From Candidatus Nanoarchaeia archaeon (lineage in GTDB: Archaea; Nanobdellota; Nanobdellia; Woesearchaeales; SM23-78), in the NCBI GenBank assembly GCA_035256305.1, contig DATEYH010000138.1, positions 1 through 37,343 of the forward strand: a stretch of 37,343 nucleotides of DNA. The letters run 5' to 3'. A program made the translations under genes and the position numbers. Of this stretch, positions 24,231 to 34,391 are shown one piece after another. Every line of letters starts with the position of its first letter. Position 1 is the stretch's first letter. The notes beneath the pieces were generated by a model, which saw only the letters and a list, made by a program, of their open reading frames with translations, did no database searches and was not told the DNA's origin.

Positions 24231-24359
24231 CGCCACGGCCCGGACTTTCAATGAAACTTAATCTCTCAGTTTCTTCTTTGAACCAGGAATTCCTTGCGGA
24301 ACCAGCTTTCCAGCTTAATGCCTCAAGGCTGGCGCACTACCAGATTATGCGACCGTGGC
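24231..24359 (-). tRNA. tRNA-Ser(UGA), class II, with two introns (14 nt at 37/38, 24308-24321; 32 nt in the T-loop at 59/60, 24245-24276)
   Basis: Hand fold: acceptor GCCACGG/CCGUGGC, discriminator G, D arm GCAU/GUGC, anticodon stem CCAGC/GCUGG, loop CUUGAG-A, long variable arm UUCC-GCAA-GGAA, T arm CCUGG/CCGGG with loop UUCAAA-U after splicing. Confidence 0.75.
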
Positions 24360-24540
24360 AAAAAAATTTTATTTTTTTGGACGTTCGCATACTCAAAAAT
24401 TGTAAATGAATTTTGTTGTACGCCTTTTTTAGGCGTGCTCAAAAATTGTGAAACAATTTTTGTTGTATGCGACCGTGGCACGAAGTGCTAGGTTGCATTC
24501 AGAAATTTGGAACAAATTTCTGTTATGCGACCGTGGCAAG
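24360..24540 (-). repeat. 5' leader of tRNA-Ser with two extra copies of tRNA nt 1-14 (GCCACGGUCGCAUA), one imperfect inverted copy and four hairpins
   Basis: Plus-strand TATGCGACCGTGGCA at 24346, 24466 and 24524. Hairpins CAGAAATTTG/CAAATTTCTG, CAAAAATTG/CAATTTTTG, ACGCC/GGCGT, CAAAAATT/AATTTTG. Inverted copy GGACGTTCGCATA at 24379-24391. Confidence 0.8.
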
Positions 24541-28022: not shown

Positions 28023-28555
28023 TTAAGAATAAAACAAAAATTCTTTTTTATATTTAATTTTGAAACATAATTTCTTAGAAATAATAAATTAATGATAGCT
28101 GTTCATAGGAATCAACAACCAAGGTTGTTGAGCCAAAAATTCTGAGGAATTTTTGTGCATCATAGTCTTTGCTTCTCAGAGCCAATTCTCTGATTTGATT
28201 GTTAAATGAGAGATTGGACTTATTAGTGGCTGCATGCTGAGCACCTTGTTGCCTTGGTGCGTACACACCAGCTCTATCAACCCGATCTTCTATCGGCGTC
28301 CATGAGCGTCTCTTTTCAAGGATGGCTTCATACTTAGATGCTTTCAGTATTTATCCATGTAAAGCGTAGCTGCCCGGCCTACCCTGTCGGATAACCGGTC
28401 GACCAGAGGCTTCGGGCCCTCGTTCCTCTCGTACTAAAGGTCCCTTCCTTTCAGACACCCAACACTTCCAGTAGATATCAAACAAACTGCCTCGCAGCGT
28501 TCTGAACCCAGCTCACGATCCCTTTTGATAGGTGAACACCCTCACCCTTGGCCGC

Positions 28556-28588
28556 ATACAGTACCTTCTTACTTTCGCAAAAAGGTTA
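28556..28588 (-). other. 33-nt BHB-type mini-intron in 23S domain V (hairpin after GAUGUCGGCU)
   Basis: Outer helix GGCCG/CGGCC, central helix GCAG/CUGU, bulges AAU and AUG, inner helix ACCUU/AAGGU. Removal gives CCGUGCAGAAGCGGCC, the conserved archaeal LSU sequence as I recall it. Confidence 0.6.
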
Positions 28589-28852
28589 TTCTGCACGGCC
28601 AGGATAGGAAGAGCCGACATCTATGTAGCAAACCGCGCCGTCGATAGGAGCTCTCGGGCGCGACAACTCTGTTATCCCCGGAGTAACTTTTCGGTCGGTA
28701 CCGTCCCCCATTCAAGGAGGAACGGCAGTTCGTTAGGCCCAACTTTCGTTTCTGGTATTCTTCTTATTCAAATACCAGTCAGGCTGGCTTTTGCCCTTAC
28801 ACTCAACATCGGATTTCTGACCCGACTGAGCCAACCTTGGGGCGCCACTGAT

Positions 28853-28897
28853 ATAAAGCGAGCATAGACAAGCTTTATCAAGCAATCTATTGCTCAT
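28853..28897 (-). other. 45-nt BHB-type mini-intron in 23S domain V
   Basis: Textbook helix-bulge-helix-bulge-helix: GCCGCUGA/UCAGUGGC, central AAAG/CUUU, two AUA bulges, inner helix UGAGCA-UAGA/UCUAUGCUCG. Removal gives GCUGAAAAGAUAUCAGUGGC. Confidence 0.75.
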
Positions 28898-29233
28898 ATC
28901 TTTTCAGCGGCGTGCCACCCCAGCCAAACTGTCCACCTGCCGGTGTCCAAGTCACAAGGACTTGTGAGCAGCGTAAAACCAGATGAGTAGTGTTACATCG
29001 ACGTCTAAACCTGCACTTGCATGCAAGCCTCAAACAACTCCTACTTACTCTATACACCCGGTCTCACGTTGCAGCAACAGGCTACAGTAAAGTTTCACGG
29101 GGTCTTCGCTTCCCACTGGAAGTCTCTGGTCTTTGCACCAGAACAAAATTTTCAGAGGGTTCCGGTTGGGGACAGTGGAGATCTCGTTACGCCATTCATG
29201 CAGGCCGTCAATCAAACGGCAAGGCATTTCGCT

Positions 29234-30005
29234 CACATCTGTTACTTCCCTTAAAATTTAAGGTACTGACCTTCTCTTTAAGGCGGACAAGCATTTCTAC
29301 TAGTTGCTCAAAAATCTCAAATGATTTTTGGCAACCCCAAAACCACATGGTTTTGATGTCTCCTCACATCGCTATGAGGGTCGGACTATATCTTAACACT
29401 CATCAAAGAGTGTTTTTGGCGTATAGTCTCTGAGGATTCTAGACGCCTTATGACTTTTCGGTTCATCTCAGAAGCAAGTTCAGCTATTTTCTCTAAGCCT
29501 GCTCTTGACAAGTGCTCCTTTTTATTCATAATCCCTAATATTTGTGCAAAGAGTTCAAAGCTATTCTTCTTAGAAGTTTGAAGAGGATTTTCATTTATGA
29601 ACTGAACTATACGGTTCAGGTTGTCTAATCCTCTCACTCGGAACTCTTTCCTATCTCCGTTATTCACAGTTACGCTTCCAAAACCAAAATATGACTTGAT
29701 TCTGTGAAGTACTGCTTCATCGCGTTGATGTTGCACTATCCTTAATTCAGGGAGTACCTGCCATTTTAAGGTCATTTTCTCTAATCTATTAATAGACACA
29801 TGAAAACAACCTTCTCCATCAATGAATCCGACAATCCACTTAGCATCCAGTCTTTCCTGCTGATTATCTGCACCTATCACTTTTTCACCCTGACAACATA
29901 TAAACGTTTTAATTTAAATAGCTCACGTTAATATGTCCAGTGGTAGTGTAGGACTCTCAGACGTCCCAGCATATAGCCAGATTGTTTAAGGCAACTTCTG
30001 TGCTT
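29234..30005 (-). mobile_element. group I intron (772 nt) in 23S domain IV, carrying a LAGLIDADG homing endonuclease ORF
   Basis: Interrupts CUUAAGGU|AGCGAAAUGCC. The 5' exon ends in U, paired as U.G in a 7-bp P1 with internal guide GCCUUAA 13 nt into the intron. The intron ends in G. AAGAUAUAGUCCGACC (the classical S/P7 3' element) follows the ORF, with candidate P7 partner GGACAUAU. Confidence 0.75.
29386..29880 (-). CDS. LAGLIDADG homing endonuclease (single-motif type)
   Basis: KWIVGFIDGEGCFHVSI motif near the N-terminus; 164 aa; GTG start; sits inside the intron and its stop codon lies within the AAGAUAUAGUCC core element. Confidence 0.85.
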   Translation of the reverse strand: MIGADNQQERLDAKWIVGFIDGEGCFHVSINRLEKMTLKWQVLPELRIVQHQRDEAVLHRIKSYFGFGSVTVNNGDRKEFRVRGLDNLNRIVQFINENPLQTSKKNSFELFAQILGIMNKKEHLSRAGLEKIAELASEMNRKVIRRLESSETIRQKHSLMSVKI

Positions 30006-30837
30006 ACCTTAAGAGAGTTATAGTTACTCCCGCCGTTTACCTGTCCTTCGTTCCCTTGGATGGGATTTTCAGATACAGGCACTGGGCAGACGTCACCGAC
30101 TATTCTAGCCCTTACGGGTTGGCAGTCGGTTAAGTTTTTGTTAAACAGTCGGACCTCCTTTGTTACTGTGCCTTACACTCGCATTCTTATGAATACAAGT
30201 GTAGGGACCCCTTAGACCGAAGGCTTGGGGCTAATTTGCCGAATTCCCTCAACCAGATTGTCCCTTCTCGCCGTGGGCTTCTCACCCAGGGGCACCTGTG
30301 CCGGTGCTGGGTATAGACATAAAGGATTTTTCCCTGTTCCCTTTTCAAGGGCTCCGGGTATTAGCTGAACAATACTTAAGTACTGCTGTTCTAAGAGTTG
30401 ACCAGGTTCTCATCGTTACGATACTCCCCTGACCTGCCCTTATTAACAATCCCGACGGGGATTGTCAGCCTAACCAGAAGCGTCAGGAACAAGGCTTGCG
30501 TTACCGCACATACCAATATGGTACAGGAATATTAACCTGTTTCCCTTTCCTCTACTAGCTCAAGTTATGAGCTGAGTTAGGACTAACTTACCCTTGGCTG
30601 ATCTGCATTGCCAAGGAACCCTTGCCCTTTCAGCGACACTGATTCTCACAGTGCTAAGTTCTTACTATTACCAGGATTCTCATTCCTGCAAGATTGACCT
30701 CTCCTCTCGGAGAAGCTTCTGCTCTAGCAGGACGCCTACCTACCGCAACGCTTGCGCGTGCCAGCGGTCTCGGTGACTGATTTAGCCCCGTCCATCTTAG
30801 GCGCTCATAACCTCGAAGAGTAAGCTGTTACGCACTT

Positions 30838-30870
<33 letters not shown>

Positions 30871-32235
30871 CGCTGTCTTTGGTTATGAACAACCTTCACC
30901 CTTTCACACTTAACCAATGCTTAGGGACCTTAACCGCTGTCTGGGTTGTTCCCCTCTCGCGCATCACCCTTACGACGATGCGCCGTCTCCTGAGGTCTAC
31001 AGTGCATGGGACTTTGGAGTTGGACAAAGAACCGACCACTTTCGCGGCCTAAATCCTAAATCCGTAGCTCTACCTCCCAGGCAACCTCGCTCAGGGCTTG
31101 ACTGCAGCCAACTTCGGTAGGAACCAGCTATCGCCGAACTCGATTGGCTTTTTACCCCTACGCTCAAGTTAGAAGAACATTTGTACATAGAACCTCTGCA
31201 GGCCTCCACCCTTCTTTAGAAGGGCTTCACCTTACCCAAGTGTAGTTCGTCCGGCTTCGGGTCTGGTCCGAGTGACTAAAGGCGCTTTCACACCTCTCCC
31301 CTCGCATGCTGCGGGATATTGCTTTCGCTTTGGATGCCCATTGATTAATGGTTATCCTTGCCACTCAGACAAACTCCCTGGCTCGTTATTCTAAACGCAC
31401 GATACACAGCCGAAGCTGCGTATCCCGCTGTATCTACTAGGTTTCAAGTTCTATTTGACTCTCTGTCAAGAGTTCTTTTCAGCTTTCCCTCACGGTACTG
31501 GTTCGCTATCGGACTCAAAACGTGTTTAGGGTTAGGAGTTGATGCCTCCTAGCTTCGCACCTAGTATCCAGTAGGTGCTACTCAAGATACTGCCACGCCT
31601 CCCTGACTCCCTCTACGGGACTATCACCCTCTATGGTACTTCTTTCCAGAAGACTTTGAGTCATCAGGGTAAGGTCTAAAAGACAGTCTTACAAATCCAC
31701 ATCCCATCTCATTTTTCAATGAAAGGTTCAGATTGCCCTTTGCTGCTTTCGCTCTCTGCTAATAACAGCATCCTTAGTTTAGTTTCTCTTCCTGCAGGTA
31801 CTAAGACGTTTCAGTTCCCTGCGTATAGCTAGCCTTTCGGCTTCAAAGCGAAGTCGCATTCAGAAATCCCTGGTTCAACCCCTGCGTGCGGGTCGCCAAG
31901 GCTTTTCGTGGCTTGCCACGTCCTTCTTCGCCGTCTTGAGCCAAGCTATCCTCCTAGTAGAGTATTTTCTCTCAGAACTTAGCAATCATTTCAGAGACTT
32001 ATCTCTGTGTTGCAAAGACCAATAATTTCCTATGAACAGCCTTCATTAAACATGAGTAAATGAATATTGGTCGACATGAAAAAGCATGTCTTCTCGTGTT
32101 CTGAGCTTCTTCACCCAGCAAGTCTTAGTTGCCGAGCTGCTAATAAAAAATTGAATATGAAATGTAAGTGGACTCTGCGACAACAAAAATCGCGAAGCGA
32201 TTTTTGAGTCCTCGAGTCCATCTCACTTCGTTCGA

Positions 32236-32377
32236 TGGACTCTGCGGGAATTGCGTCCTCAGAGTTTATGTAATAAACTCTGATGTTGTATTCGCACCCG
32301 CGGCCCCCACCTCTCTCAAGCAAAAGCTCTTGCCTTTTGCATGCAAGGGTGGTGCTCTACTACTGAGCTAAGAGCCC
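32236..32377 (-). tRNA. tRNA-Ala(UGC) in the 16S-23S spacer, with two introns (29 nt at 37/38, 32313-32341; 41 nt in the T-loop at 59/60, 32250-32290)
   Basis: Acceptor GGGCUCU/AGAGUCC with the G3:U70 Ala identity pair, D arm GCUC/GAGC, anticodon stem CCACC/GGUGG, loop CUUGCA-A, variable GGGCC, T stem GCGGG/CCCGC. T-loop intron flanked by central helix UGCG/CGCA and bulges AAU/AUU. The mature T-loop UGCGAAU and D-loop AGUAGUA are atypical. Confidence 0.75.
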
Positions 32378-33224
32378 ATGCCGGGGGTATAATCCCCTTT
32401 TGCTCCTGTGAATAGCAAAAAAATAATGTGGTAGGAGAAGAACTAGCCTAACAAGATTCTAATATTTATATAAAAAATTATAGGAGGTGATCCCACCGCA
32501 GGTTCCCCTACGGTGACCTTGTGACGACTTAACCCATCTCACTGAACTCAGGTTCAACACAACCAAGAAAGCTGTGTTTCACCTAAACCCTGCTCGATTG
32601 GTTTGACGGGCGGTGTGTGCAAGAGACAGGGACATATTCACCGGACTATGCTAAAATCCGATTACTAGGGATTCCATCGTCACGAGGCTGAGTTACAAGC
32701 CTCGATCTGAACTAAGATATGGTTTAGAGGTTTAGCTCCCCCTTTCGGGGTGGCATCCCATTGTCCATACCATTGTTGCGCGCGTGTAGCCTAGAGCATT
32801 CGGAGCATACAGACCTACCGTAGCCTGCACCTTCCTCCCTGTTTCCAGGGCAGTCCCCTCAAAGTGCTCAATCCATCCGTGGATGTTGTTAGCAATAGAG
32901 GGTACAGGTCTCGCTCGTTGCCAGACTTAACTGGACGCTTCACAGCACGAGCTGGCGACGGCCATGCACTACCTCTCGGCTTGTCAGGTAATGTCTTCAG
33001 CATGACCTTCATTCTGCCGTCGGCTCTAGTGAGGTTCTCTGCGTTGAGTTAGATTGAACCGCACGCCGCACCCCTTGTGGTGTCTCCCCGCCAATTCCTT
33101 AAAGTTTCAGCCTTGCGACCGTACTTCCCTGGTGGCGAGCTTAACGACTTCTCTTCGACACTGCGCATCCTCGTGGGGTGCGCAATACCTTGCTCGCAGC
33201 GTTTACAGCTAGGACTACTCGGGT

Positions 33225-33368
33225 AATTAGCACCTTTATTTCCATAACGTATCAGAATTTGCAATGGATTGTAGTAATTTTTTCTTGGCAAAAACAAATC
33301 GTTCAGTGGGTTTTAACGAAGTTAAAATCCCACATTGCATTTTTTGGTACAGCTTTGATTAAAGGTGT
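33225..33368 (-). other. 144-nt BHB-type intron in 16S, inside the GGAUUAGAUACCC block
   Basis: Central helix UUAG/CUAA, bulges AUA and UUA, 8-bp inner helix CACCUUUA/UAAAGGUG. Cutting after the 2nd bulge nt restores GGAUUAGAU|ACCCGAGUAGUCC. Contains a 12-bp UUCG-capped hairpin. Confidence 0.8.
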
Positions 33369-33852
33369 ATCTAATCCGTTTTGCTCCCCTAGCTTTCGTT
33401 CCTCACAGTCGGACCCGTCCTGGCCAGATGCCTTCGCCATTGGTAGTCCTCCCTGGATTAACCCATTTTACCGGTACCCAAGGAATACTTCTGACCTCTT
33501 CCGGTCCCGAGTCTTGTAGTGTCCTCTGCACGCCGACAGGTTAAGCCTGCCGATTTCACAAAGGATTTTCAAGACCTGCTACGAACGCTTTAGACCCAAT
33601 AATCGTGATGACCACTTGGGGCGCTGGGGTTACCGCGGCGGCTGGCACCAGTCTTGCCCACCCCTTATTCGCCAAGCTTTTTACACATGGCAAAAGCCTA
33701 TCAATGATAAGCACTTGGGATCCCCTTCTCACACTTGCGTGCATTGGAAAGGTTTCGCGCCTGCTGCACCCCGTGGGGCTGGGACCAGTATCTCAGTGTC
33801 CCTCTCCGGGCTCCCACTCTCATGGCCCGTACGGATCCTAGGTTTGGTGGTC

Positions 33853-33896
33853 TTGTAAGCGCCAGCTTACAACCCAAAAGGGTTAGCTTTTGCGTG
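33853..33896 (-). other. 44-nt BHB-type mini-intron in 16S (helix equivalent to E. coli ~255-270)
   Basis: Outer helix UUGGCGGU/ACCACCAA, central helix GUAA/UUAC, bulges UGC and AAG. Removal gives UUGGCGGUGUAAUGGACCACCAA, colinear with the conserved UUGGUGGGGUAACGGCCCACCAA. Confidence 0.65.
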
Positions 33897-34391
33897 CATT
33901 ACACCGCCAACAGCCTAATCCGCCGCCAGTCCATCCTATGGCACGAGTTTAAGGAAGAGCCCATTCCAGGGCTTGTTCCCTATCAGGTATTACCCTCACT
34001 TTCGCGAAGCTATCCCCGACCATAGGGCAGGTTACCGACGTGTTACTGAGCCTTTCGCCTCCATTGCTGGATGACTTGCATGGCTTAATCGGATCCCAAT
34101 AGCAGCAATCTCCCGCAGGATCAACGGGAACTGATTATTTGATTATTCGGCTAAAACTTTAATGAAACTTTATTAGAATTCTGCTAAACAGGATTCTTTC
34201 TCCTACCAGTATACTTGAATAGCTAGTTCAAGCATGAAACAAACTTTTCGAGTTATGCTGATGCAAAAGATGCTTAATCCAGACTTTCGTCGAGATGTTT
34301 TTAATTCTGCATAACTATGGCGCTGATCGCTTGTAGAGAATCAGTGTTTAGATCCTCGCCTGAAAATGCGTGTTTTCAGAGAGTTATAGGG

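Follow-up and report, generated by a model that had tools for sequence, protein, structure and literature searches.

What is the short segment of DNA that stands between the end of a tRNA-Ala gene and a second copy of that same end, and how did it come to lie within an rRNA operon? The locus belongs to an archaeon of the Woesearchaeales, whose genome (G000; 1.18 Mb, 42.6% G+C, 165 contigs, 84% complete) includes contig C138, the 37,343-nucleotide stretch analysed here and referred to as the window. One congener carrying the element is entered as Candidatus Woesearchaeota. The operon is read from the minus strand, with 16S rRNA at 34131..32482 and 23S rRNA at 31977..28202. In the spacer between them lies tRNA-Ala(UGC) at 32236..32377, a gene missed by both ARAGORN and Rfam and read directly from the sequence. 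It spans 142 nt owing to two introns, one of 29 nt in the anticodon loop and one of 41 nt in the T loop (59/60). The encoded tRNA has a UGC anticodon, the 5′ end GGGCUCU, a 7-bp acceptor stem with a G3:U70 pair, and discriminator A73. RNase P RNA is found in the genome, so nothing points to unusual end maturation.

Several features of the tRNA complement deserve mention in their own right. ARAGORN (introns allowed) and the Rfam tRNA model each report only about 15 tRNA genes in the 1.18 Mb. The window holds at least four, none of which is detected by either program; multi-intron tRNAs of this genome escape standard finders. Modules of the kind described below are one cause of tRNA finders missing or mis-ending genes in these genomes. 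In both tRNA-Ala genes, that in the spacer (window 32236-32377) and another at C56:10455-10526, the T loop reads UGCGA(A/C)U, so that position 55 is a G, and the D loop, AGUAGUA, lacks GG. Hence, the usual elbow contacts G18/G19-U55/C56 appear to be replaced in this lineage.

On the minus (RNA-sense) strand, the tRNA ends in ...CCCGCAGAGUCCA at 32236. Its last 11 nt, CGCAGAGTCCA, lie at 32246..32236 and again at 32179..32169, giving a period of 67 nt; the original prediction had this direct repeat right in both position and sequence. By simple arithmetic, an exact copy within ~100 nt of a given 11-mer has a chance of about 2e-5. We call the repeat X (CGCAGAGUCCA). Copy 1 (32236..32246) covers the final two T-stem nucleotides, the acceptor 3′ strand and A73; it is the functional end of tRNA-Ala, which is complete with this copy. 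Copy 2 (32169..32179) is a stranded duplicate. It is followed by what spacers aligned by eye identify as the original trailer (32152..32168; CUUACA plus conserved UUUCAUAUUCA), which reads CUUACAUUUCAUAUUCA. The conserved trailer motif TTTCATATTCA begins 6 nt past copy 2, and in relatives the same motif follows the tRNA.

The insert between the two copies is 56 bp long and contains two hairpins, no gene and no ORF. The 15 nt directly after the tRNA, UCGAACGAAGUGAGA, form a hairpin of their own with the last tRNA bases. In this hairpin 1, whose tip UCGAAC-GAA-GUGAGA (32221..32235) is defined by DNA folding and covariation, the CCA of the tRNA end pairs with UGG of the next segment, and a GAA triloop is accompanied by tandem G.A/A.G mismatches. 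Next comes X′, UGGACUC-GA-GGACUC (32206..32220). It consists of UGGACUC at 32220..32214, the complement of GAGUCCA, and a second GGACUC at 32211..32206. UGGACUC is complementary to the acceptor 3′ strand, as originally noted, but does not follow the tRNA immediately, since the 15 nt of hairpin 1 intervene. The basal stem of hairpin 2 is formed by X′ with copy 2 and, in part, the foot. Within this stem lies an A5/U5 hairpin, C-AAAAAUCGC-UUC-GCGAUUUUU-G (32184..32206), hereafter the M hairpin; this is the UUC-looped hairpin of the original prediction, present at 32206..32184. Between it and copy 2 is the foot, GUUGU (32180..32184), which is conserved in 7 of 8 Ala units and also seen at the Arg, Phe and Ser modules.

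The stretch folds well as either nucleic acid. As RNA it reaches -34.1 kcal/mol (z = -5.1) and as DNA -20.2 kcal/mol (z = -4.9), and none of 200 shuffles matches either value. C-GNA-G triloops are frequent among the module loops, for example GCGAAGC (window 32190-32200, plus strand, and hairpin 1 tips). GCGAAGC forms an exceptionally stable DNA mini-hairpin, and these triloops may hint at single-stranded DNA intermediates.

Could the segment simply be part of the rRNA processing apparatus? An inverted-repeat map of the 16S and 23S flanks argues otherwise. The 16S processing stem pairs 32449-32464 with 34171-34186, and the 5′ strand of the 23S stem (31979..32049, minus strand) pairs with 28089-28205 through repeats I1 and I2, separately from the module; no stem arm involves 32161-32246, which lacks long-range complementarity to the far 16S or 23S flank. 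In the spacer comparison called for at the outset, two congeners (G001 and G002) lack the duplicated segment, which shows that not all relatives inherited it as ancestral sequence. Two other A5/T5 hairpin modules occur in this part of the window, at 28132-28159 and 29305-29332, and are mutually 75% complementary; one of the pair sits between the two arms of the 23S processing stem on its 3′ strand, and the other is within a 23S insertion region. The 23S gene also has a weak group I intron match (29362-29880, minus strand; 31.3 bits, under the gathering score). The match overlaps an ORF of 164 aa for a LAGLIDADG endonuclease (Pfam E = 1.6e-25), and such introns have been reported before from the rRNA of Woesearchaeota (PMC6125680).

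Duplicated tRNA ends recur throughout the genome, in line with the enrichment expected under the original prediction. Outward exact copies of at least 9 nt are found at 7 of the 32 ends of 16 tRNA genes, versus 0 of 32 on the wrong side. The ends concerned are the 3′ ends of the Ala, Arg, Phe and Ser(C2) genes, the 5′ and 3′ ends of Leu, and the 5′ end of the Ser gene in the window; additional cases are present at C126, C72 and C2:1358. The parallel drawn earlier with the tRNA-Ser(UGA) leader holds, as copies of its 5′ end lie at 24346-24360, 24466-24480 and 24524-24538 with A5/T5 hairpins between them. Hairpins of the form A5-stem-loop-stem-T5 number 28 in the genome, compared to a mean of 0.8 in shuffled genomes, and many bear the asymmetric foot CTC...GTTGT. 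The core UCGC/GCGA of the M type is spread over many families and genomes of the order.

Two aspects of this pattern bear on mechanism. First, the order of parts going outward is the same whether a 5′ or a 3′ end is flanked: X, loop, X′, CTC-hairpin, (G)TTGT, distal X (10 cases, by eye). That Ala, Arg, Phe, Leu and Ser genes share this architecture and polarity favours a single mechanism, as first proposed for tRNA ends. One caveat is that the 16S 3′ end is also duplicated in relatives. In G242 (L026, contig C3, ~1410-1580) and G015 (L006, contig C35), the end GATCACCTCC(T) recurs 110-160 nt downstream with hairpin modules in between, which indicates that the phenomenon is not limited to tRNAs. 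Second, the duplications, whose lengths range from 11 to 17 bp across targets, can extend past the mature RNA end, by 3 nt in the case of Arg and 9 nt in the third Leu copy (overall range, 1-9 nt). This points to an event at the level of DNA rather than at an RNA end.

A gapped-pattern scan of metagenome contigs identified a homologous unit after spacer tRNA-Ala(UGC) in five related contigs, two of which have identical unit sequence. (Locus L057 of the same scan is a CRISPR array and a chance match.) In the congener G011, a unit is found behind a non-operon tRNA-Ala(GGC) adjoining a phosphoesterase-like ORF (translated frame read by eye); this assembly does not include a spacer tRNA-Ala. The ortholog of tRNA-Ala(GGC) in the present genome, on C56, has neither module nor intron. 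The eight aligned units share the order X (11 nt), hairpin 1, X′, 2-3 nt, an X′-like segment, M hairpin, GTTGT, X. In all eight, copy 2 equals the local tRNA end, for CGCA and CGAC types alike, as would be the case if it derived from the target by duplication, or were kept up by recombination through the short repeat. The unit data fit equally well with a true duplication of the target, with att-like recombination, or with conversion among tRNA-Ala paralogs. The imperfect X′ form TGGCTCGGCGGCTC is common to mg54 and G011, with mg53 differing at one position. By this sharing, X′ of the Ala subfamily would be inherited with the unit, which points to a subfamily specialized for tRNA-Ala ends, where X′ could assist in choosing the site. 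Of 401 genomes sampled from the order, rRNA operons often being unassembled, only two show the strict Ala-unit pattern, and this subfamily appears confined to the genus.

Comparison of close relatives suggests that the units are dynamic. In mg54, two dissimilar units stand in tandem, giving three copies of X, and the extra unit is bounded exactly by X relative to the very close mg56 and mg59; mg53 has a third, partial copy. Among mg54, mg56 and mg59, variation is concentrated in hairpin 1, X′ and the tip of M, and the flanks are conserved. The introns of the spacer tRNA-Ala differ too (loci L054, L056 and L059), with one in the anticodon loop in mg54, one in the D loop in mg59, and none in mg56; hence, tRNA introns turn over quickly alongside the modules. 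In congeners G001 and G002, tRNA-Ala is followed by the trailer and the conserved TTCATATTCA motif, with no module, and in G005 a different hairpin-rich insert occupies the same site. An unrooted tree of the downstream spacer and 5′ part of 23S places the units in two well-supported clades, with G001, G002 and G005, which have no unit, between them. The tree allows either one ancient gain followed by losses or repeated gains. The predicted empty junction, in which the tRNA-Ala end is joined to the original trailer (CTTACATTTCATATTCA), was searched for in metagenomes and not found. A separate 21-mer search had a match in a Leptofilum genome, which was judged to be chance (~0.3 expected).

Taken as a whole, we think it probable that the insert is a DNA-level insertion module, placed at the 3′ edge of the tRNA-Ala gene and associated with a target duplication. 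The inserted DNA would be the 67 bp from 32235 down to 32169, that is, a GAA-tipped hairpin, the target-complementary X′, an A5/T5 hairpin, the GTTGT foot and then the 11-bp end duplicate. Its arrival may have involved either insertion accompanied by target duplication or recombination at the short repeat, and the module could spread among genes with a common 11-nt end. Single-stranded DNA hairpins together with X′ would take part in the choice of site. Copy 1 would complete a normal tRNA, which RNase P and the tRNA 3′ endonuclease can release, leaving the module and copy 2 as discarded spacer RNA. Members of the module family are numerous both here and elsewhere in the Woesearchaeales, and the best-supported reading is that the family keeps inserting at stable-RNA gene ends and has a rapid turnover. 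Several findings weigh against insertion. No transposase of a fitting type was found in the genome (84% complete), and the repeat length varies from 11 to 17 bp, unlike classical target-site duplications. The covarying stems described below and the tree, with its option of a single ancient gain, count on this side as well.

It is also conceivable, if unlikely, that selection maintains the unit as an RNA element within the pre-rRNA spacer or the tRNA trailer. In that case, hairpin 2, formed by X′ and copy 2, would mimic the acceptor stem of tRNA-Ala plus its discriminator and provide a second site for a tRNA-end enzyme such as RNase Z, the CCA-adding enzyme or even AlaRS. Alternatively, the unit could act as a folding switch, as X′ can pair with either copy. 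Certainly, the stems covary. Across the eight homologous units, eight pairs are altered on both sides, and 87.9% of cells are paired, compared to 35-45% with slid partners; helix 2, the basal stem with X′, has 90% of cells paired. In hairpin 1, pair 17-23 is AU in four units and GC in four, and pair 18-22 is CG in five and UA in three, while in the M hairpin 5 of 10 pairs show compensatory changes. The tandem G.A/A.G motif of hairpin 1 is retained in 5 of 8 units. Covarying stems and kept mismatches would fit a selected RNA structure, as would the low z-score of the RNA fold and the fact that copy 2 always tracks the tRNA. In the RNAalifold register, moreover, the basal stem reproduces pairs 2-71 to 7-66, with G.U at 3-70 in 5 of 8 units, but the register of this G.U is ambiguous and a bulged alternative fits equally well. 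Single-stranded DNA hairpins predict the same covariation, G001 and G002 have the same operon layout and manage without the unit, and the tandem units of mg54 are dissimilar. Since modules point outward at both gene ends, the leader and trailer RNAs are complementary, which argues against a single RNA-level function; with the 16S-end modules included, no one RNA sequence is common to all.

Another explanation, which we regard as rather improbable, dispenses with an element altogether. Local template switching or snap-back synthesis, at a replication fork stalled by a highly transcribed RNA gene, could have copied the gene end in both inverted and direct orientation, the A5/T5 hairpins being ordinary hairpins common in spacers. 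The order X, X′, X does resemble the products of duplication-inverted-duplication events, and C-GAA-G loops would nucleate DNA snap-back, d(GCGAAGC)-type mini-hairpins being stable. Inverted copies and hairpins can arise by this route in one step, as documented in earlier studies (PMC8794818, PMC5453318). Yet similar units, including the imperfect X′ noted above, are common to different loci and genomes, the CTC-hairpin-GTTGT core recurs at unrelated targets, and polarity is constant. We consider it very unlikely that the 11-nt copies represent the attL and attR sites left by a larger integrative element, a virus or plasmid that entered the tRNA-Ala gene by means of a tyrosine integrase and was later almost wholly deleted. 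Direct repeats of a tRNA gene end, extending to the end of the gene and placed around foreign DNA, are the hallmark of such integration, exemplified by a displaced tRNA-Thr fragment in Caldiarchaeum (PMC3293823), and repeats whose length varies between targets fit att identity segments. Against this, the insert is tiny and ORF-less, its small size at many genes and in many genomes is not expected from independent near-total deletions, and no integrase gene lies nearby, the genome having a single Xer-like gene.

The same tRNA already has two introns, which raises the question of whether the module is a third, with copy 2 as the true 3′ exon, and its counterpart in copy 1 removed together with the module by the splicing endonuclease. 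Whichever register of the repeat were used, splicing would yield an unchanged tRNA, and the T-loop intron starts with ACAAC and a hairpin, that is, the foot and M in opposite orientation. Both genuine introns, serving as positive controls, have canonical bulge-helix-bulge (BHB) geometry with 4/4 pairs in the central helix (UGCG/CGCA and CUUG/UGAG), but the best of all registers of the 67-nt period reaches only 3/4 in the canonical (2,2) geometry, the module is the reverse complement of the intron-like orientation, and it lies in the trailer of a tRNA already complete with copy 1 rather than interrupting the mature RNA, all of which makes a third intron highly improbable. Matches from a wider BHB scan are spurious products of the repeat itself, and 4/4 matches at other tRNAs come from self-complementary 4-mers within the repeat.

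The T-loop intron resembles the module in its layout. This intron (window 32250-32290, minus strand; U-ACAAC-AU-hairpin-AGGA-CGCA-AU) amounts to the foot and an M-type hairpin reversed, plus an exon-pairing segment (UGCG:CGCA) that forms the central helix of the BHB. It is flanked by an imperfect direct repeat, GCGAAU/GCAAU. Judged from its layout, the intron fits the idea that a module of this type, within a tRNA gene and in spliceable orientation, may become an intron. A broader proposal, tentative and on present grounds doubtful, is that the modules are guide-bearing mini-elements, in which X′ guides a host enzyme to where stable-RNA genes end, and that members of the same family inside tRNA genes give rise to BHB introns and are the source of many non-canonical archaeal tRNA introns. 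The host enzyme might be a Xer-type recombinase acting on folded single-stranded DNA, or else RNA-processing enzymes might serve. Where a module landed in a tRNA the other way round, exon and intron would form a helix, which would make it a BHB intron that can be spliced. In a 2026 census of tRNA introns from Asgard archaea, no general way for them to arrive emerged (10.64898/2026.10.13.758758).

These observations bear on how archaeal tRNA genes gain interruptions, and on how mobile DNA uses such genes without destroying them. Within 56 bp, the insert shows the essentials of tRNA-targeted integration, namely a duplicated gene end and an intact gene, with no recombinase gene of its own. It also shows a target-complementary segment, the formation of arrays, and a layout in common with a genuine intron of the same tRNA. 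The mechanism, if found, may reveal a new mode of targeted insertion that does without a dedicated enzyme, and may explain intron turnover in DPANN archaea as well.

How do the modules compare with known systems? A literature search found no description of such modules at tRNA or rRNA ends, and the family is apparently undescribed. In the genome (84% complete), families Y1 (PF01797), TnpB, Cas1, IS110, DDE_Tnp_1 and RT had no match in a screen that also included rve. The sole transposase-like gene found is of the IS6/IS240 type (DDE; 381 aa, N-terminal SWIM zinc finger; C148:778-1923), and the sole tyrosine recombinase is the Xer-like gene, at C157:8713-9573, with no integrase near the insert. 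A MITE mobilized by a DDE transposase would be expected to have a fixed-length duplication and a common TIR; here, duplications are 11, 12, 13, 14-15 and 17 bp at different genes, and the inverted segment is target-specific. Likeness to integron attC sites (GTTRRRY) does not go beyond GTT.

Other systems come closer. Non-canonical BHB introns, for which 'transposition' has been proposed in the Thermoproteales (reviewed in PMC4090602), are likewise hairpin-rich tRNA-associated inserts, with an intron segment that pairs with the exon; the module differs in lying outside the mature tRNA, in the opposite orientation and with no BHB. REP/BIME elements, the REPINs served by RAYT Y1 transposases, and Rickettsia palindromic elements are also short, non-coding, multicopy hairpins with covarying stems. 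The module, by contrast, has no Y1/RAYT partner, combines an 11-17-bp target duplication with an inverted copy, and is situated at stable-RNA gene ends. Casposons and CRISPR spacer integration, both of the Cas1 family, share with it a preference for tRNA-gene 3′ ends, long duplications and repeat-insert-repeat arrays that build up as one site is used again and again. Casposon duplications are 14-15 bp (PMC5137440), whereas that at tRNA-Ala is 11 bp and lengths vary among targets, the insert is tiny and non-coding, and the genome lacks a Cas1 match. Finally, in archaeal attL/attR sites of SSV-type and pNOB8-type integrases, a terminal repeat of the tRNA gene brackets the insert, leaving the gene whole and its former end stranded, just as in the module, and repeat length varies between targets in both. 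The nearest published case is the tRNA-Thr fragment of Caldiarchaeum, displaced beside a 1.9-kb insertion (PMC3293823). Elements of the att type are kilobases long, with their own or an adjacent integrase; the module is 56 bp, with neither integrase nor ORF, and instead contains hairpins and a target-complementary segment, recurs at many tRNA and 16S ends within one small genome, and forms tandem arrays.
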